From the IMG/VR virus record IMGVR_UViG_3300025167_000484, positions 1-27,726 of that record: a stretch of 27,726 nucleotides of DNA, one strand, 5' to 3'. Both the position numbers and the translations under genes were made by a program. The stretch's first letter is position 1. Each line of letters starts with the position of its first letter. The DNA is from a virus (lineage: Duplodnaviria > Caudoviricetes). This document shows positions 3,146 through 22,477 of the stretch, one piece after another. The notes under the pieces were generated by a model. The model did no database searches, had not been told where the DNA came from, and was given only the letters and a program-made list of their open reading frames with translations.

Positions 3146-3175
3146 ATATCCTCCTTATTTTTATCATGTTATCTT

Positions 3176-3730: not shown

Positions 3731-3735
3731 ATACT

Positions 3736-4710: not shown

Positions 4711-4711
4711 A

Positions 4712-5356: not shown

Positions 5357-5358
5357 TT

Positions 5359-5814: not shown

Positions 5815-6645
5815 TTATAATAAATCCCTAACAAATTCAATTTGTTCTTTGATAGTTTCTACTTCTTCCCCTTCCACGCCACGAGCGACTTGTAATGTAA
5901 AATTTCCCAAGTAATCCACCCTTCTTAAAAATGTAAATAAATCCTTCCATCCATTTCTTCCAATAACACCTTCGCCCAATGGAACTGTATTTCCTTTAGA
6001 ATCCTTTTCTTTTATATGAATATGATGTAACATATTATAATCATTATAATTTTCCATTTCTTTAATTACATCTCTATTATAATTATTTCCAATATCAAAA
6101 CAACACCCTATTCTACCCGATCTTGAATTTAATTTATCAGGGTAAGTTAGATCATTTATAAAATTTATTCCTGCAAAACTATTTACATCTAAAAATTCAA
6201 AAGCTATTCTTACATGGAAATTTTCTATGACTGAAGATAACAATGCTTGAATTGTTGGAAAATCCATATTTTTTACATATATGGGAATAACCAATAACCC
6301 ACAATCAACCCTATATGCGATATTAGCTATCCAAGTCAATAACTTTTTTGCAAAAATTAAATTTTCATCCTTATTCAAATCCATATCCATTAAATAATCT
6401 AAACAAACGGCATTAATTGGAACTTTAAAATATTTAATTAAACTCTGGATCGTGCCACAGGAATAAAAATCACCTAAAAATAAATTGGGGTTTGTTTTTG
6501 GTATTATCCATTCAATATAGTCTAATCCAATCTCACTAATTTTTTCAAATTCTTCGCTTATTTCCTGACCATAGGGATTAAATTGCACATGCTCTCTTCC
6601 CCTTGGTGGGATTAATCTTCCTTGCATTATTCCGATATTATTCAT
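5815..6645 (-). CDS. Sugar phosphate isomerase/epimerase, xylose-isomerase-like TIM barrel
   Basis: IGIMQGRL N-terminus, GLDYIEW, IAFE, CFDIGN, HIHIKE, VPLGEG. Confidence 0.85.
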   Translation of the reverse strand: MNNIGIMQGRLIPPRGREHVQFNPYGQEISEEFEKISEIGLDYIEWIIPKTNPNLFLGDFYSCGTIQSLIKYFKVPINAVCLDYLMDMDLNKDENLIFAKKLLTWIANIAYRVDCGLLVIPIYVKNMDFPTIQALLSSVIENFHVRIAFEFLDVNSFAGINFINDLTYPDKLNSRSGRIGCCFDIGNNYNRDVIKEMENYNDYNMLHHIHIKEKDSKGNTVPLGEGVIGRNGWKDLFTFLRRVDYLGNFTLQVARGVEGEEVETIKEQIEFVRDLL

Positions 6646-7403
6646 ATTATATCTCTACCTCCACAACAAATTAAATTACCCCCTTGCATATAATCTGAGT
6701 CTGAACTACACAAAAATTTAATTGAACCATTATACTCATCAACTTTGGCAAGCCTGCCGATCGGTATTTTATCTTCCAAATTCTTTTTTAAAGTATCTGA
6801 TTGCCCATTATACACACTTCCTGGGGATAAACAAACCGACTTGATCTGACTGCCATAATAACTGGCAATGTACTTAGTTAGATGTATAAGACCTGCTTTT
6901 GAGACACTATAATCTGGTGGTTTAATATATCCATTTTCATATATTCTTTGATCACTTGTTATTATACCAAGGTCTGATATTATATTCACAATAGTTCCCT
7001 TAAACCCTTCATTTGTATTTTTCAACATATATTTTATGCATTCTCTACTAAGCAAAAAAGCTCCTGTTAAATTAACAGATAATGTTTTATTCCATTTGTC
7101 TAAACTATAGATTTCAAAACTGTTATTCACACCTTCTTTTGGAGGAAAATTTATAGCAGCACAATTAATAAGTATATCAATTCTGTCATAATTATCATAT
7201 ATTTGATAAATTGTTGTTTTAACATCCTCTTCATCTGTAATATCTATTGGGTAAAAACGTGATTTTTTAATCAATCTATTGATTTTTTTACTTGGCAAAT
7301 CCAAAATAATTACTTCATTATTATCATCTTTGGATAATGTATATGCAAATTCACCCCCAAGTAAACCGTGACCACCAGCAACGAGTATTATTTTTTTATT
7401 CAT
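6642..7403 (-). CDS. SDR family oxidoreductase (PtmA-like, nonulosonate-cluster type)
   Basis: GGHGLLG, DILINCAA, VNLTG, DQRIYE, YSVSK catalytic YxxxK. Confidence 0.92.
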   Translation of the reverse strand: MNKKIILVAGGHGLLGGEFAYTLSKDDNNEVIILDLPSKKINRLIKKSRFYPIDITDEEDVKTTIYQIYDNYDRIDILINCAAINFPPKEGVNNSFEIYSLDKWNKTLSVNLTGAFLLSRECIKYMLKNTNEGFKGTIVNIISDLGIITSDQRIYENGYIKPPDYSVSKAGLIHLTKYIASYYGSQIKSVCLSPGSVYNGQSDTLKKNLEDKIPIGRLAKVDEYNGSIKFLCSSDSDYMQGGNLICCGGRDII

Positions 7404-8152
7404 TTATAAATTCCAGTATTTTTAAAAATTTGAGCAGAATTTTCTTTCATTAAAGCTTCTGCATTAACAAAATCAATTTCATCATTTATACTTATACCAT
7501 ATAATTTATCAATAATAACTGGTTTGCATGGATGAACAATTCTAACCCTATCCTTCAAAAATCTTTCTATTTTAATAGCCCAAGCTCCAACTTCTCTAAA
7601 TAAAGTATCATCATCATTTTGCCTCATTTTCCTATCGGTATATAATGCTTCCCATTCAAACTTTGGTCTCGGACATTTCCAAAATTGCCCAATATCTTCA
7701 TGAATGATAAAAGAAGAATCCACACAATCATCTATTGAATCAAGCATAAGATCTAATGAGTCTATTGGTATTAAGGGGGAAGTCACTTCAACAATACCCA
7801 AAATACCTGTATATATTCCATACTTGTAGAGTTCGTTTAGGCATACTTCCTCAGTTGTTGTGAAACTTGTTGCTAAATCATCTATTCTTTTTGATAAAAT
7901 TAAAGCCTCTTCATCAAATATTAATCCGAAGTGCAATTTTACCATTTCCAAGTACCAATCACTGTCAGAAGAAACTATTACTTTATTAATTTTTCCATTC
8001 TTATATAAGTGATATAATTTTTTGATGGTCCAATAATAAAGTGGTAGATCAAGGAAATTCTTAATATTTTTATTTTTTATTTCCTTTGAGCCTGATCTCA
8101 TGGGTACAATAACTGTAGTATTGTATGTAGGTTTTTCTAAATTATTTTCCAC
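7400..8152 (-). CDS. neuA: Acylneuraminate cytidylyltransferase (CMP-nonulosonate synthetase) family protein
   Basis: IVPMRSGSKEIKNKNIK, VSSDSD, TSPL, RKMRQ, INDEIDF; GTG start. Symbol is family-level. Confidence 0.9.
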   Translation of the reverse strand: MENNLEKPTYNTTVIVPMRSGSKEIKNKNIKNFLDLPLYYWTIKKLYHLYKNGKINKVIVSSDSDWYLEMVKLHFGLIFDEEALILSKRIDDLATSFTTTEEVCLNELYKYGIYTGILGIVEVTSPLIPIDSLDLMLDSIDDCVDSSFIIHEDIGQFWKCPRPKFEWEALYTDRKMRQNDDDTLFREVGAWAIKIERFLKDRVRIVHPCKPVIIDKLYGISINDEIDFVNAEALMKENSAQIFKNTGIYK

Positions 8153-8154
8153 TT

Positions 8155-8334
8155 TTAGTTCTCAAGTTCATTAAAAAGAGTCACAAAAAATCCCCAAACA
8201 AATAAAGCAATTACTGAAATTGTGTATAAAAAATAAAGATAATCATTTTCCATATTAACTCTATACTGCCCAACAAAAACAGATCCGAGCATTGCTCCAA
8301 TACCAAAAAGTCTTTTTTTGTTTTTTAGTTTCAT
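8155..8334 (-). CDS. Small membrane protein (59 aa), absent from the ORF track
   Basis: MKLKNKKRLFGIGAMLGSVFVGQYRVNMENDYLYFLYTISVIALFVWGFFVTLFNELEN. TAATG overlap with the upstream gene; ends 2 nt before neuA; two hydrophobic segments. Confidence 0.7.
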   Translation of the reverse strand: MKLKNKKRLFGIGAMLGSVFVGQYRVNMENDYLYFLYTISVIALFVWGFFVTLFNELEN

Positions 8335-8537
8335 TAATCATTTACCTTCTTTCTTCCCCCTCTTTTTACCACAACACCCTTTTCTTTCCTCCATTGACTG
8401 AGAATCGTTCTGAAAGTTGATTCTTTTAAAGAAACCGATGTAATCATATTATAAGAAAGACTACCCCCAGCTTCATCTAAAAACTTAAATACCTTTTCCT
8501 TTACTGTTGAACCTACTTCCAATTTCTTTCTCCCCAT
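8334..8537 (-). CDS. Small basic hypothetical protein, possibly DNA-binding
   Basis: AAGGAG RBS; Lys/Arg-rich ends with a helical core. DNA binding is inferred only. Confidence 0.65.
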   Translation of the reverse strand: MGRKKLEVGSTVKEKVFKFLDEAGGSLSYNMITSVSLKESTFRTILSQWRKEKGVVVKRGGRKKVND

Positions 8538-8557
8538 TTTAGTCTCCTTTTTATTAA

Positions 8558-9376
8558 TTATTTCTTCCTAAATTTATAGAGTATCTCCGCTCCATTTGCA
8601 GGTCCCGATATAAAAATCCTTTCGTTTGTTACAAATTTTAAGTATTCAAAAAAAGCAACTATTTTTGTATCCAAATCTGCTACTTTGCCCTCCATTGATA
8701 GTTTTAATCTTGTAACAAAATCTCTAACCATATCTAAATACATCCCCCTCTCTTGATCAAAGGTTAAAATTGTTTCACATTCAAAATCATAGCGATTAAT
8801 GTATTCAAATATTTTATCAGGCAAAATCATTTGTTTATCTGTTTTTGACATTTCTGCTCCAACAAACAATTCTAATGTTTTCCATATAACACCCCTAAGA
8901 TTTAGAAAATTTGGATGTTCCAAAACAAAATAACCACCGGATTTTAAAAGTTTATTTGCGATATAAAACAAAATTTCAGGATTATCAAGGTGTTCGATAA
9001 CGCCGATTGATGCAATGACATCAAAGTGTTCTTTATCAAGACAAAGATTTTCCTCAATTTCAAATTTTAGATCTTCAAATGATATATGTCTAAAATCAAT
9101 CTTTCGCAACGCTGTTACTTCGTTTTCTTTTGCTTTATTTATTCCTACCCCAGAAAAGTCATAGCCGTGAAGCTCAGAAGGTTCTTCCAAAGTTGCATAT
9201 CTTGTTAAGAAATTTCCTGTCCCGCACCCCAAATCCAAGATTTTTTTCCCATTTATATGATTTTTAATCATTTTATAAACTTCGGAATATATAAGGTCTA
9301 ATGGAGATGTGAAAAATTCTTCCTTGTCATTTTCATAAACTTTATTATAAATTTCTCTCAATTCTTCATCTGGCAT
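8558..9376 (-). CDS. Class I SAM-dependent methyltransferase
   Basis: ILDLGCGTG, GYDFS, FDVIASIGVIEHL, LLKSGG; GGAGG RBS upstream. Confidence 0.92.
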   Translation of the reverse strand: MPDEELREIYNKVYENDKEEFFTSPLDLIYSEVYKMIKNHINGKKILDLGCGTGNFLTRYATLEEPSELHGYDFSGVGINKAKENEVTALRKIDFRHISFEDLKFEIEENLCLDKEHFDVIASIGVIEHLDNPEILFYIANKLLKSGGYFVLEHPNFLNLRGVIWKTLELFVGAEMSKTDKQMILPDKIFEYINRYDFECETILTFDQERGMYLDMVRDFVTRLKLSMEGKVADLDTKIVAFFEYLKFVTNERIFISGPANGAEILYKFRKK

Positions 9377-10236
9377 ACATCCTCCACGATTTGTTGAACT
9401 CTATGAGTATATAGATGTTTTCTTAAAACCAAGTCTTGTCCTCTTCCTGCAATTTCTTTTGCTTCGCTTCTGTGTATATTATAATAGTAACATAGATTTA
9501 CCAAATCGTCAAAGTCTTTATAATATCTAAGGTGTATCCCATCTTGAAATAATTCTGTTTCCCCTTCCACTTTATTTGTTAGAAGAAGTCCCCCCATACT
9601 CAAAATTTCAAACACCCTCATTTGGTATCCTGAGTTTGTTATTCCTATGTTAAGATTGATTTTTGTGTCATTAACTGTTTTTACATAATCTATATGTGTA
9701 TAAGAATACTGGATGGGGATTCCCTTATCCAATAAATAGTTTATCATATTGATCCTATTCACATTCAGATTGCCAACGAACCCAACATCTATTAATTTAT
9801 TTGATACTTGCAAATCTTTATGAACTTCTTTATCCGCCGCTAATGGAAGGAAAAAAGAATTCTTATTGAATTGTTTATAAAAAGGAAGCTCTGCTTCTGT
9901 GAAGGAATATACAATATCAAATAGAGGGGATTTTGTCTGAATAATGAAAGCGGCTTCTTGGTTTGCTTGCACAGAGTCTTGCAAATATAGTATTTTACAT
10001 ATCCTGCAAGCAAAAACATCCTCTGGGTTTATGCGTTCCCCCTTAATTACCAACAAAAATTCTGCATCTGTAATATATCTTATTCTATTAGAAACTTCGT
10101 GTCTATTCATAACTCTATAATCGGTTTCTATTACTTCATAACCCAAATCTTTAAATGCTTTTGAAATAAAATTTTCCATCCCATTAGGGTTCTTTGTATT
10201 AGCCCCAACCAAATGTATTCTTTTTTTATTTTCCAT
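9358..10236 (-). CDS. CgeB/YkvP-like glycosyltransferase (GT-B)
   Basis: FLPLAAD, DVGFVGN, KINLNI, MRVFEILSMGGLLLT, IAGRGQDLVLRKHLYTHRV. Start placed at ATG 10236 rather than TTG 10251. Confidence 0.88.
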   Translation of the reverse strand: MENKKRIHLVGANTKNPNGMENFISKAFKDLGYEVIETDYRVMNRHEVSNRIRYITDAEFLLVIKGERINPEDVFACRICKILYLQDSVQANQEAAFIIQTKSPLFDIVYSFTEAELPFYKQFNKNSFFLPLAADKEVHKDLQVSNKLIDVGFVGNLNVNRINMINYLLDKGIPIQYSYTHIDYVKTVNDTKINLNIGITNSGYQMRVFEILSMGGLLLTNKVEGETELFQDGIHLRYYKDFDDLVNLCYYYNIHRSEAKEIAGRGQDLVLRKHLYTHRVQQIVEDVCQMKN

Positions 10237-10831
10237 AGTGTACCTTTTCAAAATCTACAATAGAATGCCAAATTTGTCTTCCTCTATCCTTATCTATATG
10301 AATGCCCAAAGAACTTATACTATGATAAACCTCATCATAATTCTCAAGAAAATAGGGAAAATACAAAATATGGTGTTTTATTCTAAGATTTATACACGTA
10401 TTTATAAAAACTTTAAATTTTTCATCCAATTCAGCAGGTGAGAAATTTGTGTAATATCCTAAATTACCATGACTTTTCTTTGATTCTAATGCGTGTAATG
10501 GTTCCCTATAGGTTATTAAAACAGATATATTAGGTTTTACCACAGTCCAAATTTTTAAAATATTTGGATTAAAAAGTAAACGAGGGTGCTTCATAACAAT
10601 TTTATCAATTTTAGCAATTTCTTTTTCCAAAAATAAAATTAGTTCTTCTGAAAAAGGGTTATTTTGAAAAGTAGTTAAAACGGCTTGTACCTGTTCGTCT
10701 TCAAAACCTGCATTTATGGAATCGTTCCAAGAACCTCCTGTATTATAACCTAAGTCATGCAAAAATTTGGTGAGTAGTGAAGTCCCTGATCTAAAAAATC
10801 CCGTGATAAAAAGATGTTTTTGATAATCCAT
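10226..10831 (-). CDS. Sulfotransferase-family protein
   Basis: 5'-phosphosulfate-binding loop FITGFFRSGTSLL, KHP, and 3'-phosphate-binding-like YREPLHALES. Confidence 0.75.
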   Translation of the reverse strand: MDYQKHLFITGFFRSGTSLLTKFLHDLGYNTGGSWNDSINAGFEDEQVQAVLTTFQNNPFSEELILFLEKEIAKIDKIVMKHPRLLFNPNILKIWTVVKPNISVLITYREPLHALESKKSHGNLGYYTNFSPAELDEKFKVFINTCINLRIKHHILYFPYFLENYDEVYHSISSLGIHIDKDRGRQIWHSIVDFEKVHYGK

Positions 10832-10840
10832 ATTTATCCT

Positions 10841-11512
10841 TTATAAATAAACACTCACAATCTCAGAATAATAATTAGTCCAATATTCCCTATTATGTAC
10901 ATTTGTTTTACAATGACAATTACCACACAAAGTTATTAAATTTTCTGGGTTATTGTTTTTCTTGTCATAATCTATATGGTGAATACATAAATTTTCTGTG
11001 TTCATACATCCAGGTGTTTGACATATATTTAAATCTCTATTTTTAATGAATTGTTTAAATTCTTTATTAAATTCTTTAGGATATATTTCAAAAGAAGAGC
11101 CTCCATTCCAATTTGGGGATAATTCCCGTTTCTTCCCATACATAGGGTTATCTTTTCCTATCCATTTACCCTTTCTATATTTAGACATTTTTTGTCTTGT
11201 TTCTTCTAACACTTCTCTCCCCATAGCTTTATTTCTTATTTTTAATCTTGTTTCTTCTGTAACTTTTTTACCAAAAGAGGGGCTTTTTTCACCCTTTTTT
11301 CCAAATTGTGGATTGTTCTTTCCCTTTTTAGATTCAGATACTTTCTTATTTCTTTCCTTAGAATATTGCTGACAACCACAGGATTTACATCTTTTTCCAC
11401 TACTTAATTGTCTTTCAACTTCTTGTAAACAAAAAGAACATAAAAATATGCCATAATAAATCCATCTACCATTCTTATTTTTCTCTTTTCTTGTTTTTCT
11501 TATTAATTTCAT
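10841..11512 (-). CDS. HNH homing endonuclease with NUMOD3-like repeats
   Basis: CSFC/SCGC; repeats TEETRLKIR and EETRQKMS; GKxNP motifs; [23 protein letters not shown]. Start at ATG 11512, 1 nt after the upstream stop, matching the N-terminus of its paralog. Confidence 0.9.
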   Translation of the reverse strand: MKLIRKTRKEKNKNGRWIYYGIFLCSFCLQEVERQLSSGKRCKSCGCQQYSKERNKKVSESKKGKNNPQFGKKGEKSPSFGKKVTEETRLKIRNKAMGREVLEETRQKMSKYRKGKWIGKDNPMYGKKRELSPNWNGGSSFEIYPKEFNKEFKQFIKNRDLNICQTPGCMNTENLCIHHIDYDKKNNNPENLITLCGNCHCKTNVHNREYWTNYYSEIVSVYL

Positions 11513-11513
11513 A

Positions 11514-12746
11514 TTATAATTTTTGTAAAAAACAATCAAAAGACCATGAATTTTGAATTTTATCAAAACTTAATAATTTAAATTGTGTTTGTAATTTAGC
11601 TAAAACCATGTTCCTAAAATCTTCTGGCAAAAAGTCATTTATGTGGGTTGGGTCTGCTTGTTCTGTCCCGATGTTTGGAATATATCTTTTATGAGGAACA
11701 ATAAGTAACAATACCCCTCCAACTCTTAATTTCTTAAACCAATCTTCTACTGCTTGAACAGGGTCTTTAATATGTTCGATAAGATGAGAAGCACAAATAA
11801 AATCAAGTGTTTCATCTCTAAAAGGTAATTCCTTTGTCCCATCCCAAACTAATTCTGGTGTCTTCCCACCATTTCTGTCTTGATCCACCCCAACTGCAAA
11901 ATTCACCTTTTTTCGATTATTACAACCTAAATCCAGGCCGTTCAACATATTTTCTTGTGTCTTTAAAAAATTATTTATAAATTCTGTCTCAGACCTCCAT
12001 AAATGACTACCAGATGTTTGTAAAATAATATTGAATTTCCCCTCAACCCAAAGGTCGGGTCTCCGTTGGAGTGCCCGATTAAATATTAAATTCTTCCAAT
12101 ACTGAGGGTCATTTCCTTCTCTTACCCATTTCTGAGTAAATTGCTCAGAATGCAAACGATTCTCTACCAAAACTTCTGATATATGCTTTAGTTGAACAGA
12201 ATGCCCCACAAGTCTAATAATAAAATCCGTATCTGCGGAATATTTAAGCGTTGTGTCCCATCCCCCAATTTCTAATGTTTTATCCCTTCTGTAGCATTGA
12301 AGATGCCCAATATTTTGAAGATCCTTTATACTTCCAGATTTCCATTCAGGATATTTTCTAACCTGATTTGTTCCTAAAATTTTAAGATCTGAATATATAA
12401 ATCCAATCTTTCTATTTACTTCCTTATCAATAAAATTTGAAAGTTTTTGCAAAGCATCTGGCATCAAAACATCATCGTGGTCTAATCTAATTAACCATTC
12501 ACCTTTAGAATAATAAACTCCTATGTTATGACTCTTCTGTAGGCCAAGATTTTGCTCATTCTTCACGTATATTAAGTCTATTTCAGGTCTATCCGGCAAT
12601 AAAACTTTTGAGGTAGATGGGGTATCTGAATCATCTATAATTACTACTTGAAATGGTTCTTTATATATTTGATTATAACAAGACTCCACCGCTTCTGACA
12701 AAAACTGGGGTTGATTATATGCAGTAATTATAATTGAGAATTTCAT
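11514..12746 (-). CDS. Family 2 glycosyltransferase fused to a C-terminal SAM-dependent methyltransferase domain
   Basis: SIIITAYNQ, VVIIDD, LDHDD (DxD), IGGWD...ADTDF; C-terminal LDLGC, LPFRDETLDFICASHLIEH, LRVGG, DPTH. Confidence 0.92.
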   Translation of the reverse strand: MKFSIIITAYNQPQFLSEAVESCYNQIYKEPFQVVIIDDSDTPSTSKVLLPDRPEIDLIYVKNEQNLGLQKSHNIGVYYSKGEWLIRLDHDDVLMPDALQKLSNFIDKEVNRKIGFIYSDLKILGTNQVRKYPEWKSGSIKDLQNIGHLQCYRRDKTLEIGGWDTTLKYSADTDFIIRLVGHSVQLKHISEVLVENRLHSEQFTQKWVREGNDPQYWKNLIFNRALQRRPDLWVEGKFNIILQTSGSHLWRSETEFINNFLKTQENMLNGLDLGCNNRKKVNFAVGVDQDRNGGKTPELVWDGTKELPFRDETLDFICASHLIEHIKDPVQAVEDWFKKLRVGGVLLLIVPHKRYIPNIGTEQADPTHINDFLPEDFRNMVLAKLQTQFKLLSFDKIQNSWSFDCFLQKL

Positions 12747-13094
12747 TTAATTTTCTTCCTCATCATCTTCCAAATCAACTTCTACTGTAGGGTCTTCCCC
12801 ATTTTCCAATTTTTCTTGACAACATGAGCAAGTCGTCTCATATCTATCACCAAATTTATTCTCAAATTCTTCATAAAAATCATATACATTGGATAAAAAT
12901 CCAATTAAAAATCTATAATCTCTATCTGTTTCCCCAAACTGCCACAAAAGATGTAAGGCATGGTAAATTGAATCTTTTGTTAATTCTATATCATCTTCCT
13001 TTTCATTCAAGGAAAGCCTATTAACTGCGTACTCTATAAAGTCGTCTTCAAAATTTTCTAAAGGTCTTAACTTTTTTTCCTCTTTTTTTGTCAT
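12747..13094 (-). CDS. Hypothetical acidic protein with one copy of an unknown repeated domain
   Basis: GAGG RBS; shares ExF-x6-Y-x3-RL and EFENKFG.RY with the neighbouring gene. Confidence 0.75.
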   Translation of the reverse strand: MTKKEEKKLRPLENFEDDFIEYAVNRLSLNEKEDDIELTKDSIYHALHLLWQFGETDRDYRFLIGFLSNVYDFYEEFENKFGDRYETTCSCCQEKLENGEDPTVEVDLEDDEEEN

Positions 13095-13103
13095 TTTATA
13101 CCT

Positions 13104-13589
13104 CTATTTGTTTTTATACCTACTCCCAAATTTGTTTTCAAATTCACTATAAAGATTATCAATTTCTATTATTTTACTAATAGCTTCTTTAGCATTGCTA
13201 TTGGCTAAAATGGAAAGAGTTTCATCAACCCAATCCTTCTTTTCTTCTATGCTATGATTATTCCAATCATTTGAAGGTGTCCAATCATTTTCTGGGTCTG
13301 TTAATCTACTTGAAATATATGTTAATACTACATCATTATAAGTTTCCTCTGGTTTAATTTGAAATTTCTTATGTTCAAATTCCCACCACAAATAATCAAT
13401 TTCAAGGGTTCTTCTAAGAACACAATTAACACAATATTGGCATAAAAGTTGCAATATAGTTGCAATATATATTGCTGGTTTTCTTGATTCCTCCTTAGAA
13501 GGGTCAGGAACAAATCCCAATCTATGCATAATATATGTATGACAATCCAACCCAAAATCTTCTTTTTTCCTTTTTATTATTTTATTCAT
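13104..13589 (-). CDS. Hypothetical protein with two copies of the same unknown domain
   Basis: Internal duplication: EDFGLDCHTYIMHRL...EIDYLWWEFEHK versus ETYNDVVLTYISSRL...EIDNLYSEFENK. Confidence 0.75.
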   Translation of the reverse strand: MNKIIKRKKEDFGLDCHTYIMHRLGFVPDPSKEESRKPAIYIATILQLLCQYCVNCVLRRTLEIDYLWWEFEHKKFQIKPEETYNDVVLTYISSRLTDPENDWTPSNDWNNHSIEEKKDWVDETLSILANSNAKEAISKIIEIDNLYSEFENKFGSRYKNK

Positions 13590-13606
13590 AGTTTAATATT
13601 ATCATA

Positions 13607-14677
13607 TTATACAATTATGTCAATTAAATGTTTAGAATTCTCAAACCACCCAAGGTTAGCCTCAGCATACTTCCTACTTGCTAATTGCATTTTATATAAT
13701 TCCTCTTTGTTTTCAGATAGTTCTATCATTTTCTCAGCAAAATCTACAATGTCTACCTCACAAGATTTAACGAAAATTCCAGGAATTTCTTTCTTCTCTT
13801 TAACTTTTATTAAATAACCATTTTCCCCCTCAATTATCCTTTCATTTAGAGGAGCACAATCAGTTGCTATTACAGGTCTGCCCAATGCTAAAGATTCCAT
13901 CTGCGGAAGGCAATTACCCTCCCATCGGCTTGGCAATACCACCAAATCTGCCTCTTGGTAATATTTAATAAGTTCCTGAGTAGAGACAGTGGAACTTGAT
14001 TTTATAACATTTTGTGACCTCACTGATTGATTCTCCTGCTGTGTATGAATGTGCAGTAAAGTTTTGTCTCTTGGGCAAATCCAACTAAAAGCATCTACTA
14101 CAGCTTTTTCATTCTTACGATCATTTACCCCACCAAAACCTGCTGGGAAAAAAATTAAGGGTTTATCTTTTTTGATAGGTTCTTGGAAGGAATATTGGTC
14201 TAAATCTATCCCCCAAGGAACAAAAACAGCATTATCTAAAAGATGATCGTTTTTTAAGAGATTATATGAGGATTTGGTAGGACAAACAATATGTGTAAAC
14301 TGTTGATAATATTGAAGTTCTGCCGGATTTATGAATTCCCATACGACATAATTTATACTTTTGACCCCTAATTTGTTGCAAATTGGGACAAGATTTTTGG
14401 TATGTTGTTCCTCTACAAAAATTACTATATCAAGTTTATTTGCAATAATCCATTGTTCAAAATCCCCTTCTTCTATCTTATAATTTGGATAAAGCAAGAT
14501 ATTTGGGTGGAAGTAATCGTCCCAGTATTTTATTTTCTTTCTGTTGTCAGCTATGGACATTCTGGCAAGAATAGATATATTGGCATTTGGTATATGCCAC
14601 TGAATAGCTTGTTTAATCTGTTGACAAATTACGCCAGAACCACGATCAAAATATACAGACACAATTCCAATATTCAT
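13607..14677 (-). CDS. Family 4 glycosyltransferase (GT-B)
   Basis: VPWGIDL, RKN, ADLVVLPSRWEGNCLPQMESLALGRPVIATD (EX7E), IIEGENGYL. Confidence 0.95.
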   Translation of the reverse strand: MNIGIVSVYFDRGSGVICQQIKQAIQWHIPNANISILARMSIADNRKKIKYWDDYFHPNILLYPNYKIEEGDFEQWIIANKLDIVIFVEEQHTKNLVPICNKLGVKSINYVVWEFINPAELQYYQQFTHIVCPTKSSYNLLKNDHLLDNAVFVPWGIDLDQYSFQEPIKKDKPLIFFPAGFGGVNDRKNEKAVVDAFSWICPRDKTLLHIHTQQENQSVRSQNVIKSSSTVSTQELIKYYQEADLVVLPSRWEGNCLPQMESLALGRPVIATDCAPLNERIIEGENGYLIKVKEKKEIPGIFVKSCEVDIVDFAEKMIELSENKEELYKMQLASRKYAEANLGWFENSKHLIDIIV

Positions 14678-14683
14678 TTATAT

Positions 14684-14712
14684 ATTATATCTTATTATTT
14701 TATAAAAGGCAA
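14684..14712 (-). promoter_or_regulatory. Sigma70-like promoter for the glycan cluster; probably a leaderless transcript
   Basis: TTGCCT (14712-14707), 17-nt spacer, TATAAT (14689-14684), 6 nt, ATG at 14677; no SD in between. Confidence 0.75.
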
Positions 14713-14725
14713 GTTTTTATTTGAT

Positions 14726-15181
14726 CTAAGTTAATACAACAGATATGATCTTATGGCAAACCAGAGAGACTACTCCACCCATAACAATTTCTTGGTCTCG
14801 TGCCAAAACATAAGGGGTTATGGATAGAATTTCAGATCCTAATTGAGGACAATAATCATTTATGTCCCAATTTTCCCTTAAAACGTTCCCCAATTTTGAA
14901 AGCCCCGTCCTTAACCCCTGGCGGGAATTTCGGTCATTTAAATTTGCATACCAATATGTTATGGAAAGTTGCATAGAAAGTGTTTTTCTTCTAGGCATTT
15001 CCTTCCATGCTTCTGTAATACTATCCAATTCTATTGTGATATAGGGGTATTTGGGGATGAAATTATCCTCAGTTTTTGCAATATCTGCAACAGCTAAGTA
15101 ATCTTTATAATTACTTATAACTGTGTGCACATTTGTGATTAGGTCTTCAATGTAATTTGTGGTATCTGAAGGATTTGACAT
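14726..15181 (-). CDS. Putative tail terminator / tail completion protein
   Basis: 151 aa, directly after the gpG-like gene; YPYITIE followed by an alternating beta/helix pattern. Mostly a positional call. Confidence 0.55.
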   Translation of the reverse strand: MSNPSDTTNYIEDLITNVHTVISNYKDYLAVADIAKTEDNFIPKYPYITIELDSITEAWKEMPRRKTLSMQLSITYWYANLNDRNSRQGLRTGLSKLGNVLRENWDINDYCPQLGSEILSITPYVLARDQEIVMGGVVSLVCHKIISVVLT

Positions 15182-15690
15182 TATATATTAGTCTCTACAG
15201 CTTTTTCCATAATTTGAAATACTTGCTCGGCTTCCTCTTCCGTGATGAAGAAAAATTCTCTTTTATTGTTAAAAAATTTAGCATAGGGCAACTTCGATCC
15301 AGAAATAGCATACCTGAATTGAACCCCATTTGCTATTTTATCAACTTCAAATATGTTAGCATCTTTCTCTCGTTCTGTTGCGGATGTGTACATGGTATTA
15401 GTTAAGCGTCCCAATTCGTTTAACTTGCATACTCTTTTTCCAAAAGAACCAACCTTAACTTTGTATCCTTTGCTAACTGCTCTTGTTTTCCATTTTCTAT
15501 ACATTGGTGTAAGTGGCTTCCAATTAGACTTCCCCTCTTCAAAACGCTTCTTAATAAAAACACTAATTTGTTCAAATACATTTTTCCATAAAGCATTAGT
15601 AAAAGTTTTATTTTTTAGTGCCTCATCTAATCCTTCAAAATCTCTTATAATTTCGGTTGCACCATCAATTTCTACTTTCCAAGTTATCAT
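15181..15690 (-). CDS. Phage virion morphogenesis protein (Mu gpG-like)
   Basis: RFEEGKSNWKPLTPMYRKWK, LNELGRL, PYAKF...REFF; follows the connector gene. Confidence 0.75.
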   Translation of the reverse strand: MITWKVEIDGATEIIRDFEGLDEALKNKTFTNALWKNVFEQISVFIKKRFEEGKSNWKPLTPMYRKWKTRAVSKGYKVKVGSFGKRVCKLNELGRLTNTMYTSATEREKDANIFEVDKIANGVQFRYAISGSKLPYAKFFNNKREFFFITEEEAEQVFQIMEKAVETNI

Positions 15691-15692
15691 AA

Positions 15693-16181
15693 CTATTTTT
15701 TATAATGAGTTTTTATGTCCTTGGAATCTTCAAGCAATCCGTCTCCGATTCCTTGCACACCACGATCTTTGAAAATCCTTGTAGCACTTGTGTATCCAGC
15801 CATATTAGAAGTATCCCCACTGGCTCCTGAGATGTAACCCTTCTTATAAGATTCGATAGTTTTATCCACCATTTCTTTCCAAGACTTCACTACGTCTGAT
15901 AACTCACCTGGCTTATTTGCACTGAATACTGCACTGTAAAGCAAAAATGCCCCCATATAATCTGAAGCAAACTGAAGGGAATTTGGGGCAGGACTTACTG
16001 GAATGGAAGAAACAGTATCTTCAAGTTGAGAATTTATGTAGCGTTCCCCATCTTCAATGTAAGCTCTTACATCAGAAGTTCCTAACGAATCTGTCATAGC
16101 TGTGCCTATCGAAAGATTCCCATAGGCTATTCTTAAAATACGTTCAATGGTTTGTGTCCCAGTTGAATAATTTATTGACAT
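15693..16181 (-). CDS. Putative head-tail connector/adaptor (Mu gp36/DUF1320-like)
   Basis: YIEDGERYINSQL...IPVSPAPNSLQFASDYMGAFLLY helical pattern; size and position fit. Confidence 0.65.
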   Translation of the reverse strand: MSINYSTGTQTIERILRIAYGNLSIGTAMTDSLGTSDVRAYIEDGERYINSQLEDTVSSIPVSPAPNSLQFASDYMGAFLLYSAVFSANKPGELSDVVKSWKEMVDKTIESYKKGYISGASGDTSNMAGYTSATRIFKDRGVQGIGDGLLEDSKDIKTHYKK

Positions 16182-16182
16182 A

Positions 16183-16260
16183 TTATTTTTTCTTTTTAGG
16201 TTTTATTTTTGTTAAATATGTATTTGTTTTGATCTTAGGTGTTTGTTTTGTTATAGCCAT
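16183..16260 (-). CDS. 25-aa microprotein homologous to the major capsid protein N-terminus; absent from the ORF track
   Basis: MAITKQTPKIKTNTYLTKIKPKKKK versus MCP MAITIQTGKIKTNQHLSKI (14/19 identical); fills the intergenic gap with 1-nt spacing on each side. Confidence 0.75.
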   Translation of the reverse strand: MAITKQTPKIKTNTYLTKIKPKKKK

Positions 16261-16261
16261 T

Positions 16262-16621
16262 TTATTTAACTGTGTAACCTTGTGAATTCAAAAAAGCTGT
16301 GCCAAATAAATTACTTAGTTTTATATTCAAAGCAGTGCCTTCTGAAGTTTTCAATGGGGTTACAAAAAATTCATTTATTTTATCAGCAGTAGGTAATTGC
16401 ATAAAATATAAAAATGCTGTACCATTTAAGAACTGAACAGAACAACCAGCCAAATTACTTGAAAAAGATAAACCAGTGATAAATTGAATATCTCTTCCAG
16501 AAGTAGGGGCAACAGATAAACTAACTGTTCCACCGCTAACAGTTCCTATAGAACCATGCCATCTACGATTCCATGAATCCGTTTCCTTGGATCTTATAAT
16601 TTGATCAAAGTCTCTTGGCAT
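16262..16621 (-). CDS. Hypothetical beta-rich protein, probable virion component
   Basis: Between the MCP and connector genes; five GT dipeptides. Confidence 0.7.
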   Translation of the reverse strand: MPRDFDQIIRSKETDSWNRRWHGSIGTVSGGTVSLSVAPTSGRDIQFITGLSFSSNLAGCSVQFLNGTAFLYFMQLPTADKINEFFVTPLKTSEGTALNIKLSNLFGTAFLNSQGYTVK

Positions 16622-16885
16622 TTATATCAACCCAGTCCCAATAAAAATTCCGATTGCGGTTCCAGCAACTCCAGCATAGGTTCCGCCTCCGACTTGCCAT
16701 ATAGTCACTGATTTCATATTATCAAAAGAAGTTCCGTATGTATGAGCAGTTGATTTATTTAAAGCTGTTATTACATGTTGGGGAACTTTTATAAGCCATG
16801 ATCCATCCACATTCTTATCTCTCATCAATTGAACCCGACCAACTCTATATATTCCAAACTGACTATTATCTATCACATCAGCCAT
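16622..16885 (-). CDS. Hypothetical protein, probable virion component
   Basis: AGGGG RBS; Gly-rich C-terminus; four GT dipeptides. Confidence 0.7.
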   Translation of the reverse strand: MADVIDNSQFGIYRVGRVQLMRDKNVDGSWLIKVPQHVITALNKSTAHTYGTSFDNMKSVTIWQVGGGTYAGVAGTAIGIFIGTGLI

Positions 16886-16902
16886 TGATTATCTAACCCC
16901 CT

Positions 16903-17154
16903 TTATTTCTTATGTGAAAAATTGTGTATTAAATTTTTATCAACAAGAACACTTTTTGATAAATCTGTTACAAAATTTATTTCCTTTTTCCGTTTACCAA
17001 CTTTCCCTTTGGGCTGCAACTCTTGTGGAAGAATTTCGATCCAACCAAGTTCTTTATAATATTCTGCTAAATTTTTAGTAATATCAAAAATATCCCCTAA
17101 ATTTTGGGGACCGTTGGGATATAAGGTGCTATAATGTTTGCATCGCACAAGCAT
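16903..17154 (-). CDS. Small capsid-adjacent hypothetical protein
   Basis: GAGGGA RBS; GDIFDITKNLAEYYKELGWIE resembles the small proteins often encoded right after MCP genes. Confidence 0.7.
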   Translation of the reverse strand: MLVRCKHYSTLYPNGPQNLGDIFDITKNLAEYYKELGWIEILPQELQPKGKVGKRKKEINFVTDLSKSVLVDKNLIHNFSHKK

Positions 17155-17175
17155 TTAAATTCCCTCAATAATATA

Positions 17176-17199
17176 GGGACCTCTTTTTATAGAGGTCCC
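17176..17199 (-). terminator. Stem-loop downstream of the MCP gene (leaky terminator or mRNA stabiliser)
   Basis: GGGACCTCT-ATAAAA-AGAGGTCCC, 9-bp stem, followed by an imperfect U-tract (TATATTATT). Confidence 0.6.
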
Positions 17200-17220
17200 A
17201 TCAATTTAATAAAACTAAAA

Positions 17221-18156
17221 TTAGGTTATGACACCTGAAAGTAAGTATCCGCAATCATTACAGATTACTTTAGGAACATAGTTATGGACCTCTCTGATCC
17301 AATCCCCTTCACGTTCCTCATCCCTCCAGGATGAAACCTGCATATTACGGCTTGACAATACAAATGTTCTTGCAAGAGTAATGGTATCGGCAGGGTTCAC
17401 ATAAGCAAGGATGCAATTTTTACCCCATACATAAGCCATAGAAGGAGCAAGCCCTTGAACAGCACTATTGTAAATAGCGGGAGCAATTACAACTTCCATA
17501 TCCCAAAGGGTTTTTGGCAATCCACCTTTTGTAAGCATGGTTAGATCCACATATTTCCGTAATTCCTTCACCTGTGGATGATGTGCAAGATACCGCTCAA
17601 CGTGGGGAGGAACCAAAATTACATTTGGAACCCTACCAGTTCTTGCAGTAACAGCTTCCTTCCCAGTGCTTATATCGCTCTCTGGGTCTGAGTTTGTGTA
17701 ATCATCCCAAAGATTTGAAGGAGTAACTATGAAATCAGGAGCAGCAGCAGAAATACCACCAGAAGCACCTGTTAGGAGTGTTGCAACGTCAATCTCCACA
17801 CCAAGCTTTATTTTCTCAGCAAGGAATTTAGTAACATCTGCCTTTAAATTGAATACATTATCAGCATTGTTCATTGCACGGTCAGTTACCATATCCTTCT
17901 GTGCTCTTTCGTATGTTGAATATGTATCTTCATCATACGCTAAAGAAGCTTCCTCAGCAGGAGCACCATCAGCCCGTTTAGGAGCACCAGAGAAGTAACC
18001 ATCTTTCTTATACTTCCTATATATATCAGATTCTTTTGTTACAAAAAAGGAAGGTGCAAGCTTTTCAGCCACAAAAGCGGCATTACTATACTGAACCGCA
18101 ATTTTGGACAAATGCTGATTAGTCTTTATCTTCCCTGTTTGAATTGTTATAGCCAT
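17221..18156 (-). CDS. Major capsid protein (HK97 fold, lambda gpE-like family)
   Basis: 311 aa; LSKIAVQYSNAAFVAEKLAP, WDDYTNSDPESDI, TGRVPN, LAHHPQV, YVWG, CGYLLSGVI; follows scaffold and decoration genes; GGTGGTG RBS. Confidence 0.9.
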   Translation of the reverse strand: MAITIQTGKIKTNQHLSKIAVQYSNAAFVAEKLAPSFFVTKESDIYRKYKKDGYFSGAPKRADGAPAEEASLAYDEDTYSTYERAQKDMVTDRAMNNADNVFNLKADVTKFLAEKIKLGVEIDVATLLTGASGGISAAAPDFIVTPSNLWDDYTNSDPESDISTGKEAVTARTGRVPNVILVPPHVERYLAHHPQVKELRKYVDLTMLTKGGLPKTLWDMEVVIAPAIYNSAVQGLAPSMAYVWGKNCILAYVNPADTITLARTFVLSSRNMQVSSWRDEEREGDWIREVHNYVPKVICNDCGYLLSGVIT

Positions 18157-18175
18157 TCATTTCCACCACCTTTCA

Positions 18176-18805
18176 TTAATTTACTGTATTATTTTTAATA
18201 AATCTATCTTTAACTATTTCAACCTTAAACAACTGTCTTGGCGTAGTTGCAACTTCCTTAGCAAAACCAAGCACAGGTTGATCAATTTGATAATAGAAAT
18301 TCCCACCACCGAAAGCACCTGCATCAACTGACATAAGAACAGTCCCACTTGCTTGTAATACCAAGAAAGAATTTGTCCCTGTCTCTCTTACTGACCCAGG
18401 AACAGCCTTGAAACTAAGTCCTGCATGTGGTATAACATGTGTACCTATATCCCCACCTGCGGCTATAGATGCAATAGCTTGAGATGTATAACCACTACGA
18501 ACAAAACCAGTTGTACCCCCACTATTTGTATAATCCAATATAATAGGATCACCTAAAGCAACCGTGCCATTAAGTGAATTCCTCATATTAATTACGCCTT
18601 CAGTAGCAACAGTAACAAGATTGTTCTGTGTTCCATCATTTGCTAAAATACCCCAAGGTATATCAGCAGCAGTATGACAATATTCAGCAGCTTCAGCAGT
18701 TCCTATAGCAGTTCTAACAACATGGCCTTCAAACCCATAACTTGAAGGAACCCACTTTGCTGATCTATGACCACCTTTATTATCCCCTGTAGAAAACTGT
18801 GGCAT
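18176..18805 (-). CDS. Capsid decoration/cement protein (DUF2190-like) with an inserted segment
   Basis: Immediately upstream of the MCP; PWGILAND...VTVATEG...VALGDPI and C-terminal VLGFAKEVA...FKVEI; AGGGGGTGA RBS. Confidence 0.65.
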   Translation of the reverse strand: MPQFSTGDNKGGHRSAKWVPSSYGFEGHVVRTAIGTAEAAEYCHTAADIPWGILANDGTQNNLVTVATEGVINMRNSLNGTVALGDPIILDYTNSGGTTGFVRSGYTSQAIASIAAGGDIGTHVIPHAGLSFKAVPGSVRETGTNSFLVLQASGTVLMSVDAGAFGGGNFYYQIDQPVLGFAKEVATTPRQLFKVEIVKDRFIKNNTVN

Positions 18806-18832
18806 TAAAAATCACCCCCTTCAATAAATTTT

Positions 18833-19537
18833 TTATAATTCTATTTTACCTTCTTTTGTAAGAACTGAACAAGCTTCTTGATAAGAAAGTTTATTTGTCT
18901 TTGCATATTCTTCTACTTCTTTATCGCTCATATATTTCTTATTAGGGTCTTCATTTTTCTTGTTATGAGCAATTTCTTCAAGATTGACCCTAACTTCTGT
19001 TGGAATAGTTTCAAGAATATCAACCAATACTTCACTTATTGACATATCTGACTTATCATCAAGTTTAATAGTGGCAAACTTTCCATCAACATCTGAAAGC
19101 ATGACCTTTTCTACCTTGGCAATCACTGCGGGCCAAAAACCTTTTTCTACAAGAGCAGAACAAGTATTTTTAACCTTTTCTGTGTGAAGGTCTTTATCCC
19201 TTTCAGCAAGTTTAGCTTCAGCATCAGCCAATTTTTTATTAGTTTCTTCCATTTTCTTTGAATTTTCTTCAGAAAGCTTTTTCTCAACTTCAGCAATAGA
19301 AGCCTTATGAGCATCCTCCATAGCTTTCTTATCCTTTGCAAAAGTATCTGAAAGTTCTTGTAGTTTCTTTTCCATATCCTCTAATCTCTTTTCTTCCGCC
19401 ATATTATCTTCACCCCCCTCTTTTTTCAAATCTTTTGTTTTGAGGTCTCCCCCATCAACCAAAGCAGTTGATTTTTCTTTTAATATATTATCTAAAAATT
19501 GAAAAAATTTAACTTTTTGTTCCTCTAAAATAGCCAT
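18833..19537 (-). CDS. Putative capsid scaffolding protein with a second in-frame start at 19402
   Basis: E/K-rich coiled coil; C-terminal EVEEYAKTNKLSYQEA helix pair typical of scaffold tails; GGGGGTGA SD before both ATG 19537 and ATG 19402. Confidence 0.75.
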   Translation of the reverse strand: MAILEEQKVKFFQFLDNILKEKSTALVDGGDLKTKDLKKEGGEDNMAEEKRLEDMEKKLQELSDTFAKDKKAMEDAHKASIAEVEKKLSEENSKKMEETNKKLADAEAKLAERDKDLHTEKVKNTCSALVEKGFWPAVIAKVEKVMLSDVDGKFATIKLDDKSDMSISEVLVDILETIPTEVRVNLEEIAHNKKNEDPNKKYMSDKEVEEYAKTNKLSYQEACSVLTKEGKIEL

Positions 19538-19560
19538 ACTTCACCCCCTTTATATCAATC

Positions 19561-19576
19561 CTATAATATATTATAG
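19561..19576. promoter_or_regulatory. Perfect 16-bp palindrome containing TATAAT; candidate promoter/operator for scaffold-decoration-MCP
   Basis: CTATAATATATTATAG equals its own reverse complement; lies ~10 nt upstream of the scaffold SD; no good -35. Confidence 0.5.
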
Positions 19577-19636
19577 TACAAAAACCTAAAAAAAATAAAC
19601 TTTTCTTTTAAAAACAAGGAGTTATAACCAAAATCT

Positions 19637-20119
19637 CTATTCAAACCAAGAAAAAGTGCTCCAGGGTAAAAAAACATTGCCAGAAGTTTCAGATTCATGG
19701 ACTATACAAACCCCATTCCCCGGCAAAAGTTCAAATTCCTGTTTAAAATCAATGCTTTGTGGTGGTGAACCATTAGAAAAATTGAAAGTTCTTCTATCAA
19801 CAACATTCCCTAAAGTCAAAGATCCCCCGGCATATATTTGGGCAACTGAATTTGGAGAATTAGGATTATATTTAATTATATTTCCTGTTAAATCAGTAGG
19901 CCCACTGCCGATGCTTGTAAATAAAACTGCTTGAGATATAACTGTAATACTTCCACTTGCGGAAGCACCCATACTTATTTCCAAAATATTTAAGTTTTTA
20001 CCACTGCCTAATGGGTTCCATAAAGCAAGGATATTAGAAAAAAGGGGGACATCTGTCCCCCATCTAAAGGAGCAAGAGTATAAATTTTCTTTCCAAAACG
20101 TGCGTCTTAGGTTTAAAAT
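19637..20119 (-). CDS. Hypothetical beta-rich protein (160 aa), probable non-canonical ATT start
   Basis: Frame open from a stop at 20149-20147; AAGGAG 8 nt before the in-frame ATT at 20119; N-terminus LNLRR matches the upstream gene (MALNLRR). The track start TTG 19984 has no SD. Confidence 0.55.
   Translation of the reverse strand: MLNLRRTFWKENLYSCSFRWGTDVPLFSNILALWNPLGSGKNLNILEISMGASASGSITVISQAVLFTSIGSGPTDLTGNIIKYNPNSPNSVAQIYAGGSLTLGNVVDRRTFNFSNGSPPQSIDFKQEFELLPGNGVCIVHESETSGNVFLPWSTFSWFE
20038..20061 (-). terminator. Intrinsic terminator-like hairpin
   Basis: GGGGGAC-AGAT-GTCCCCC followed by TTTTTT on the minus strand. Confidence 0.7.
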
Positions 20120-20152
20120 ATTAAAAACTCCTTTATTATCAAATAGTTATAT

Positions 20153-20179
20153 AAAATTGGGTTTTTGGCAGAAACCCAA
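20153..20179 (-). terminator. Weaker terminator-like hairpin after the fibre-like gene
   Basis: TTGGGTTT-CTGCCAA-AAACCCAA followed by TTTT on the minus strand. Confidence 0.5.
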
Positions 20180-20203
20180 AAAACTGTGAGATTAAATAGA
20201 AAA

Positions 20204-20872
20204 CTATCCCCCTAAATGTAATTCAACTAACTGATTGTAAGAAATTCCAGCAGCGTCATCAGAAACTAATTCTACATCTAACAAATGCCTTCCATTAGCT
20301 ATTGCAGAAATATCTATTTCCTGTTCTTTTAATTCATAAGTTGTAGCCACCGAAGTCTCATCAGAACCTACTGTAACACCATCAATTTTGTATCTTACTG
20401 TAGCTGTGTAAAGAGCATTATTGCTTTTCATTTCAGTTTTAGTTATTAAAGTAGTTCCTGGAAGATTTGATGCTTTCACAAATCTAAGTGTTTTCTGTAT
20501 ACTTGGAGTAACCCCTGTTACAGAAACTTCAGAATCATCACCAATAACTAAAGAAGTTTTGTGCTTAGAAGACAATTCCGCATCAACAACCCCAGAAGCA
20601 ATTTTAGCCCCAATAACAGCATCATCCGCTATTTCAGTAGAACCTACTGCACCATCCGCTATCTTAGCTGAGGTTACTGCATCAGCAGCAATCTTAGCTG
20701 AGGTTACGGCATCATCAGCCAAATCTGTTGAACCAACTGCTCCAGGAGCTATTTTTCCTGTTACAACTGCATCATCTGCAAGTTTAACTGTAATAACCGC
20801 CCCATCTGCTAATTTGGCAGATGTCACAGACCCGTCAGCTACTTCCCCCACTCGTCTTAAGTTTAAAGCCAT
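20204..20872 (-). CDS. Fibre-like virion protein: 10-aa repeat shaft plus C-terminal beta-rich domain
   Basis: Eight [14 protein letters not shown] repeats. Start moved to ATG 20872 because GTG 20881 lies inside the GGGGGTGA SD. Confidence 0.7.
20597..20836 (-). repeat. Eight degenerate 30-bp coding tandem repeats
   Basis: [80 protein letters not shown]. Confidence 0.9.
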
Positions 20873-20891: not shown

Positions 20892-21635
20892 TTATAGTAA
20901 GCATTCCATTAATTTACCCATCATTATATTTTGGTAGAATTCTGTAAAATATTGCCTTTTATTTTTGCCATTAGTTTTCATGTGACAACTTCTACATAAA
21001 GTTATAACATTCTCTGGTATATTGTTCTTTTTGTCATAATCTATATGATGTGCATCTAAAGTATTTGATTTATGTTCACAATTTGGGTCTTGACATGTAT
21101 AGTTATCTCTTTCCAATATTTGTTGTTTAAATCCCTTATTGAATTCAGGGGGATATATTTCAAAGGATTTTCCATTTTGCCAATTAGTTGATAATTCACC
21201 AAATCTATGAGTATCATACATAGGATTATTTTCTCCTTTATTTCTTTCAGAATTCCTTCTATTCTCCTCTTCTGTATGTTTTCTACCTATAGCTTTTTCT
21301 CTTATCTTTTGTCTTGTTTCTTCAGATACTATTTTACCATACATGGGATTATTCTCACCTTTTCTTTGCTTAGACCATATTTTTTTAGTTTCTTCTGTAT
21401 ATTTTTTACCTAAATGACTTTCTCTCATTTTTTGTCTTGACTCTTCTGTTCTTTTTTGACCTTTATTTGATTCAGAAGATAATTTGTATTGAACACAACC
21501 GCAAGAGTTTTGTTTTAAACCATTAGTTAATCTTCTTTCAACTTCTTGTAAACAAGCAAGGCATTTAAAAACGGCCCAGGATACTGCATATCCATTTTTA
21601 TCTCTTCTTGTTGGTAAGTTTCTAATTAATTCCAT
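20892..21635 (-). CDS. HNH homing endonuclease with NUMOD3-like repeats; paralog of 10841..11512
   Basis: CLAC/SCGC; [28 protein letters not shown]; [23 protein letters not shown]. Confidence 0.9.
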
Positions 21636-21636
21636 T

Positions 21637-22065
21637 TCAGCGTTTCTCCCAAATTTCTATCAATTGTTGATAAGATGTCCCATATTCTAAATTCTGTAAG
21701 TTAATTTTTATAGAATTAATTCCGTTTAGTAAATCCCCTATATAACAAGTTCCTTCCAACAAAGTAAAAGCTGTTCCAACTGTGGAAAGAACCTTTCTTG
21801 GATTACTTTCTGAATTAATAAAAAATCCTATATTGGTTGTACCTACAGAAGCCATAGCTTCTGCTTTTACAATCAAAGTATTACTTTCCATTTCTGAAGT
21901 ATTCCTAACAAACCTCAATTCCTTCTGTTCAGCCCAAGCTGTCCCTGCATAAGTTACTAAATTATCATCTGCTGTGATGAACCTAGTAATAATACTTTGT
22001 GCTACCCTTGCTTCCAAAAAATCGTAAGAAGCTGCCATAAAAGTTCTTGGTAAGATTATTGCCAT
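21637..22065 (-). CDS. Hypothetical virion protein, paralogous to the C-terminal domain of 20204..20872
   Basis: DDNLV...QKELRFVR...GTSYQQLIEI aligns with DDSEV...QKTLRFVK...[10 protein letters not shown]. Confidence 0.75.
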   Translation of the reverse strand: MAIILPRTFMAASYDFLEARVAQSIITRFITADDNLVTYAGTAWAEQKELRFVRNTSEMESNTLIVKAEAMASVGTTNIGFFINSESNPRKVLSTVGTAFTLLEGTCYIGDLLNGINSIKINLQNLEYGTSYQQLIEIWEKR

Positions 22066-22066
22066 T

Positions 22067-22477
22067 TTATTGTGTTTTTCTACAAATAAATTTTAATCTA
22101 ACCATGCAGTCTTGTTCACCAGTTTTACCCAATCTTTTAATTCTAATTCCTCTTAGAATAAATCCTGTTTGATAAAAAAATAAAGCGTCTCTCTCCTTGC
22201 TAAAGAGATCTTCATCTATCTTGTCAAAAGAAGTAAAATAATGTGCCCCTATAAGATTTAAGGATTCTATCGAATCTTCTGGAATAGGCCATGTATCAAA
22301 TATTTGTATGGAAAAAGAAGAAGGTATATCTGAAAGAATATTTATCCAAAGTTGGTCAATATCTATTACAGGGAAAGCATCTATTTCAACATCACTATAA
22401 GTATTATAATAAAAAGTATCATCCAGAATTAGGTCAAAATAGAAGTATTGCCCCTTTGTTTCAAAACGAGTCTGCAT
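22067..22477 (-). CDS. Hypothetical protein (136 aa)
   Basis: Fills the operon with tight spacing; no recognisable motif. Confidence 0.65.
   Translation of the reverse strand: MQTRFETKGQYFYFDLILDDTFYYNTYSDVEIDAFPVIDIDQLWINILSDIPSSFSIQIFDTWPIPEDSIESLNLIGAHYFTSFDKIDEDLFSKERDALFFYQTGFILRGIRIKRLGKTGEQDCMVRLKFICRKTQ

Follow-up and report, generated by a model that had tools for sequence, protein, structure and literature searches.

What is the purpose of a gene whose product repeats the first residues of a phage's own major capsid protein (MCP)? The question is raised by the window analyzed here (the entire 27.7-kb virus record, with a GC content of ~32%), in which a 25-codon open reading frame (ORF) situated among the head and neck genes encodes a microprotein resembling the N terminus of the MCP. 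These head and neck genes all lie on the minus strand and comprise a Mu-like portal and protease, a separate scaffold-like gene (phrog_976/phrog_206), a cement-like gene (recognized through a match below the Pfam cutoff), the MCP gene, and neck genes. The MCP gene (17221..18156, minus strand) matches phrog_1005 with an E value of 6e-57, and the fold of its modeled product is matched best by PDB accession 3BJQ and next by HK97 and lambda, in keeping with the original prediction of an HK97-fold MCP that bears an N-terminal arm. MCP residues 1 to 24 (18085..18156, minus strand) constitute this arm, the template of the copy, and residues 1 to 25 have pLDDT values below 50 in the monomer model, as expected for an arm that becomes ordered only within the shell. 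Among cultured phages, 118 records matched the MCP, none with more than 27% identity. Contigs that carry an identical MCP and an identical gene downstream of the microprotein extend into terminase, tail, and tape-measure genes; the window phage is thus tailed, and a tailless phage is ruled out.

The microprotein gene (16183..16260, minus strand) encodes MAITKQTPKIKTNTYLTKIKPKKKK, which contains nine lysines and no acidic residues. Codons 1 to 19 (16204..16260, minus strand) align in register with the arm from MCP Met1, and codons 20 to 25 (16186..16203, minus strand) form a Pro/Lys tail that has no counterpart when aligned with the MCP. Upstream is the gene for a conserved viral protein of 119 aa (16262..16621, minus strand), whose stop codon ends 1 nt before the microprotein ATG, and downstream is a conserved gene of 162 aa (15693..16181, minus strand) that starts 1 nt past the microprotein stop, so that the ORF fits the gap with the two 1-nt spacers that had been claimed. 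The designation of the downstream gene as a connector, in contrast, derives from its position only: searches of PHROG and Pfam returned no matches, and we retain the name for a probable head-tail connector. The gene next after it matches phrog_26 (tail completion/Neck1).

The microprotein and MCP residues 1 to 19 are identical at 14 of 19 residues and 41 of 57 nucleotides, and the five synonymous codon pairs singled out in the original prediction are present exactly as described, at codons 10, 11, 12, 16, and 19. The analytic expectation for a match of this quality is ~1e-9 per window, and across all six frames of the window the runner-up 19-mer reaches 8 matches. None of 200,000 shuffles of the microprotein's own residues exceeded 10 matches, none of 300 shuffled arms reached its score, and a profile built exclusively from 28 MCP N termini assigns it 33.1 bits, whereas none of 60 shuffled searches went above 15.6. 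The likeness of the microprotein to the arm is therefore real and not compositional.

Exact copies of the peptide, or of its homolog from locus L026 (see below), are absent among 15 billion called proteins, and the microprotein has no match in PHROGs, Pfam, or GTDB genomes, nor in a tblastn search of 50,697 annotated phage records, which has low power for 25 low-complexity residues. Within IMG/VR, all 4 loci recovered by one degenerate DNA pattern are copies of the window phage, and another recovered such copies together with three distant MCP genes (7 loci). No RNA data set that carries the sequence is listed among 22 runs.

To follow the gene among relatives, we retrieved loci around the downstream 162-aa gene and examined the upstream region in 33 of them (L011 standing for L017, which is on the same contig). 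The ORF is present in six: four (L012, L013, L014, and L015) encode a peptide identical to that of the window, and two (L026 and L027, whose connector is 68% identical) have at the same site a 24-codon homolog, MAITIQKPKIKTTTYVTKKPKKKK, or a one-residue variant of it. Between the window and L026 versions of the gene, 13 of the 17 nucleotide differences fall at third positions, a single codon is deleted in frame, and the start and stop are retained (pS of 0.83, pN of 0.083; Fisher P = 9e-8). The two peptides are 83% identical, with a pN/pS of 0.095 at which silent sites are saturated, whereas the 119-aa, connector, neck, and next genes of the same pair of genomes are 56 to 75% identical, with pN/pS values of 0.32 to 0.47. 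Along with a pN/pS of 0.26 between the microprotein and the MCP arm, these values sustain the earlier suggestion of selection on the peptide as opposed to a recent copy of the DNA. From the pattern of substitutions, we judge the ORF to be a protein-coding gene under selection.

A search of 1.84 billion representatives with a 19-position profile yielded four matches: an MCP fragment, two repetitive proteins, and P0101, a 29-residue variant (MAITIQTSKIKTDKYLSKKTNNKPVKKGK) that likewise consists of an arm copy and a basic tail. A close variant of the window gene, with no stop introduced, was found in two runs and differs by two amino acid changes (N13D and I19V; D13 also occurs in P0101) and one silent change; no constraint is visible at that short distance. 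There is no clear Shine-Dalgarno site before the microprotein or the connector, nor before several of their neighbors, and given the 1-nt spacers, the microprotein is probably translated by coupling to the adjacent genes.

Despite these signs of selection, the gene is optional. It is not conserved in all close relatives, as an essential head assembly factor would be, and is absent from the site in 27 of the 33 loci (a tally of loci, not of lineages, that includes many near-copies). In 11 of these, the 119-aa gene abuts the connector at a distance of 0 to 3 nt, and in the remainder the slot holds genes that we take, from their motifs, to be endonuclease-like, other genes, or noncoding DNA. A tree of the connector (30 rows, 25 of them distinct) splits the carriers into two groups. 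The supported sister of one group is L016 and that of the other is L028, and neither sister has the ORF. The MCP arm of L016 is identical to that of the window. The refuting check proposed in the original prediction thus has a split outcome, the frame being undisrupted wherever the ORF occurs but the ORF being absent elsewhere, and we conclude that the microprotein is not a required assembly part. A further relative, G005 (MCP 82% identical; a 26.7-kb fragment), returned only the MCP match and no second copy of the arm.

Nor does the mini-ORF covary finely with its cognate MCP N terminus, contrary to expectation: the window microprotein scores 54 against its own arm but 63, 61, and 59 against those of three relatives. 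Judging from these scores, the microprotein is a copy made long ago that passes between related phages, not a tightly matched partner. Both the 119-aa gene and the microprotein gene end in AAATAA, a lysine codon followed by a stop (16262..16267 and 16183..16188, respectively, minus strand), and since loss of the DNA between the two hexamers leaves the empty arrangement seen in relatives, the repeat would allow clean removal of the gene. One carrier is mosaic (L014:472-1661), with a connector and microprotein identical to those of the window and an upstream 119-aa gene that is 87.5% identical, which we read as a sign of recombination beside the microprotein. More generally, the slot (16182-16261) is a hot spot, which in this and other loci (L011, L018 to L025, L029, L031, and L044) is empty or contains the microprotein, endonuclease-like genes, or small genes for membrane or secreted-looking proteins. 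Comparison of the two N termini rules out that the ORF is a stub of the endonuclease-like gene occupying the same site in L011.

Ten positions (M1, A2, I3, T4, Q6, K9, I10, K11, T12, and K18) do not vary across the MCP and the four free peptides. Within the MCP arm's second half, N13 and A20 are invariant and L16 and S17 nearly so among 28 sequences, and Y23 is conserved among 37; all of these are changed or missing in the free peptides. Because the peptides keep MCP residues 1 to 12 and lose these conserved positions, the outer arm is the part that is mimicked. As judged from this pattern, the outer 12 residues, with their strand-like alternation, are what carries the selected function, and the remainder has apparently become a basic tail.

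A comparable arrangement exists in T4, whose gp61.1 (54 aa; annotated as hypothetical, phrog_1823) consists of ten leading residues, a segment with 14 of 28 residues identical to gp23 positions 66 to 93, and then a proline and four lysines. The window peptide has the same layout, a copy of its own capsid arm followed by a proline and a lysine run, and both are small stand-alone proteins, but gp61.1 is unrelated in sequence, has a ten-residue leader and an acidic/basic extension, and is encoded beside the primase gene and not in a head block. The leader weakly matches a family of internal virion proteins (phrog_5341; E value of 0.31). PHROG profile searches place gp61.1 in its own family (phrog_1823/phrog_2086; E value of 3e-33) and return no match at an E value of 1 for the window and L026 peptides, that family included. 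Residues 66 to 105 of gp23* are described as disordered before expansion and forming an arm afterward (PMC9546572), and a term search of a review of the T4 head (PMC9958956) found no mention of 61.1.

The arm copy recurs in a second setting. In two distant relatives, L058 and a complete genome of 79.7 kb (G004), whose MCPs are 58 to 60% identical to that of the window, the arm of the phage's own MCP finds its best nonself match immediately after the protease domain of a large head protease fusion. The copies score 68 (L058) and 51 (G004), values reached by none of 300 shuffled arms, and among six arms each scores best on its own (52 and 41, respectively); on the family profile they obtain 11.8 and 10.9 bits, which is inside the shuffled range. 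The two proteases are related proteins and do not represent independent events. The fusions (L058:1808-5341, where it is 1,177 aa, and L114:17620-19661 in G004) combine head maturation protease, methyltransferase-like, and ATP-dependent DNA ligase-like domains. When 58 loci were scanned with their own MCP starts, a second copy scoring above 39 was present only in L055 (the window phage) and L058, and there is accordingly none in the clade of MCPs with 40% identity, within flanks of up to 17 kb. No arm copy was found in proteases of the window clade, and the L058 protease segment, used as a query, matched nothing but itself. The occurrence of the arm copy both in a free peptide and in a head protease points to a portable docking motif, insofar as this can be read from sequence.

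Our preferred reading, which we regard as quite possible though short of probable, is that the microprotein is an accessory head peptide that docks at the MCP arm site on the shell and places its lysine tail on packaged DNA. In the simplest view, a selected copy of a binding segment would bind what the original binds, and arms of related folds hook across two-fold axes and pair with neighboring E-loops (PMC7385642 and PMC11445458): the arm and E-loop build intersubunit sheets in YSD1 and lambda (PMC7385642), and the arms of JBD30 hook over their neighbors and bend at the portal (PMC11445458). Translated by coupling to its neighbors, the peptide could use the β-strand-like alternation of its conserved part, I-T-x-Q-x-x-K-I-K-T, to pair with an armless edge of an E-loop or P-domain, such as might be available before the procapsid expands or along the five hexon edges that surround the portal. 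The tail would contact packaged DNA. Any resulting benefit, to the stability of the head or the handling of DNA, would be modest, which would explain why kin can lose the gene. A precedent is the portal vertex protein (PVP) of P74-26, which at the portal donates a strand and touches DNA with a lysine (PMC12407722). Against docking, a monovalent peptide of 25 residues would be expected to compete poorly with tethered arms. A broader proposal, about which we are more doubtful, is that tailed phages repeatedly copy the tip of their own capsid N-arm as a portable docking module that ends in a lysine tail when free (this gene, P0101, and T4 gp61.1) or is built into a head protein (the L058 and G004 proteases), yielding convergent self-mimicking peptides seated in empty arm sites of the procapsid or portal vertex.

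The main rival to docking on the shell is binding to scaffold, whereby the arm copy would serve as a procapsid address tag that brings a basic peptide, or the protease of L058 and G004, into the head or tunes release of the scaffold. This alternative, which we hold to be unlikely but a serious contender, gives the best account of the protease copies, in that a head protease must enter the procapsid, and it draws further weight from the separate scaffold-like gene of the window phage and from the binding of scaffold by MCP N termini, prior to expansion, in P22, T7, SPP1, and 80alpha (PMC9546572, PMC11456595, and PMC11922011). Yet the proteases of the window clade need loading and lack an arm copy, the leader of T4 gp61.1 would make its arm copy redundant as a tag, and in the free peptides the second half of the arm, though conserved in MCPs, is lost. 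Docking on the shell is favored by the register of the copy with the MCP N terminus, by the retention of the outer strand-like part, and by the position of the T4 copy behind a separate leader. A decoy acting outside the virion, titrating a host sensor or protease that targets the capsid arm or poisoning head assembly in coinfecting relatives, seems improbable. Host systems that sense capsid proteins do exist (Lit and CapRel), and a decoy would suit both the patchy presence of the gene in a slot otherwise holding endonuclease-like or other genes and the higher scores of the peptide on the arms of some relatives than on its own arm; however, the ORF is within the head-neck block, a decoy has no need of a conserved basic tail, its own near-identical arm would be struck too, and the protease copy fits assembly better.

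Two further alternatives deny the peptide any role that depends on the arm. If the ORF were left over from an ancient duplication of part of the MCP, with its frame preserved solely so that ribosomes leaving the 119-aa gene could reach the connector, its peptide would be functionless; the 1-nt spacers, the want of a clear Shine-Dalgarno site before the ORF or the connector, the relatives without the ORF, and the two nonsynonymous changes among three in the close variant are all compatible with such an origin. Coupling, however, requires an open frame and not conserved residues, and a pN/pS below that of all four neighbors, together with the recurrence of the same layout in P0101 and T4 gp61.1, makes this account quite improbable. 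That the peptide is simply a Lys/Thr/Ile-rich DNA-binding peptide whose resemblance to the arm arose by chance in AT-rich DNA is hardly credible: both sequences are rich in K, T, and I and the genome is low in GC, but the residue and arm shuffles described above refute composition as the cause of the match. Nonspecific DNA binding by the tail may nonetheless contribute.

Several known systems resemble the microprotein in part. Like the peptide proposed here, the PVP of P74-26 is an accessory protein, adding an arm strand to the MCP at the portal vertex and inserting a lysine into the DNA minor groove (PMC12407722), but it has a globular domain, and no copy of the MCP arm sequence is reported in that account. 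CpmB of SaPI1 provides a case of short-motif mimicry of a head assembly interface; it differs in being encoded by a parasite, in copying the capsid-binding end of the 80alpha scaffold, and in redirecting capsid size, whereas the window phage copies its own MCP arm (PMC5644958). Nor does the ORF have the setting of a CpmB-like satellite redirector: the phage whose head block includes it encodes a portal, MCP, terminase, and tape measure of its own. The internal proteins of T4 that carry a capsid targeting sequence are similarly small, basic, and dispensable and possess a short N-terminal signal for head entry, but that signal is a cleaved ten-residue leader and not a capsid protein copy (PMC9026906); the window arm copy has no such leader, starting in register with MCP Met1 and showing no match to phrog_5341. 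Finally, gp4 of Patience and Adjutor (PMC11965321) and gp93 and gp162 of phiKZ (PMC11297242) are small proteins, unfolded until bound, that line MCP grooves or pair with MCP arms, though they have at least 54 residues and are not described as MCP copies in those reports. By analogy, then, the microprotein would function much as these accessory head peptides and motif mimics do, without belonging to any of their groups. Our search of the main text of open-access papers located no description of a stand-alone copy of a capsid arm, and T4 virion proteomes published elsewhere may list gp61.1.

If the peptide does bind at the arm site, it would represent an unrecognized kind of accessory component of phage heads that is missed by gene callers, and it could explain short unassigned densities in cryo-electron microscopy maps. 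To this, the present lineage adds a gene that is optional yet more conserved than its core neighbors, as well as a head protease that incorporates the same arm copy. The copy could also be used as a short tag to direct cargo into HK97-fold shells.

Additional features of the window bear on its virion genes. Six small conserved genes near the MCP (16262-16621, 16622-16885, 16903-17154, 19637-19984, 21637-22065, and 22067-22477) have no PHROG or Pfam match and are candidate decoration or vertex proteins; in the ESM Atlas, the 119-aa protein resembles viral β-sandwich clusters, and an 83-aa protein weakly resembles DUF7210. Strong terminator-like hairpins occur on the minus strand just past the MCP gene (17176-17199) and before a 115-aa gene (20044-20061), and the former, being upstream of the microprotein block, may lower the level of the microprotein relative to that of the MCP. 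A promoter scan of 14600-20300 detected 18 sites versus 20.5 expected, from which we draw nothing. Three ORFs that we take to be endonuclease-like from their HNH-type motifs (3176-3730, 10841-11566, and 20892-21635) are interspersed among the structural and sugar genes. The sugar genes make up a block of ~14 kb (683-14677) between the neck and tail genes, whose translations resemble glycosyltransferases, sugar synthesis enzymes, and methyltransferases and raise the possibility of virion glycosylation; L026, L058, and G004 each have a glycosyltransferase-like gene at the equivalent position.
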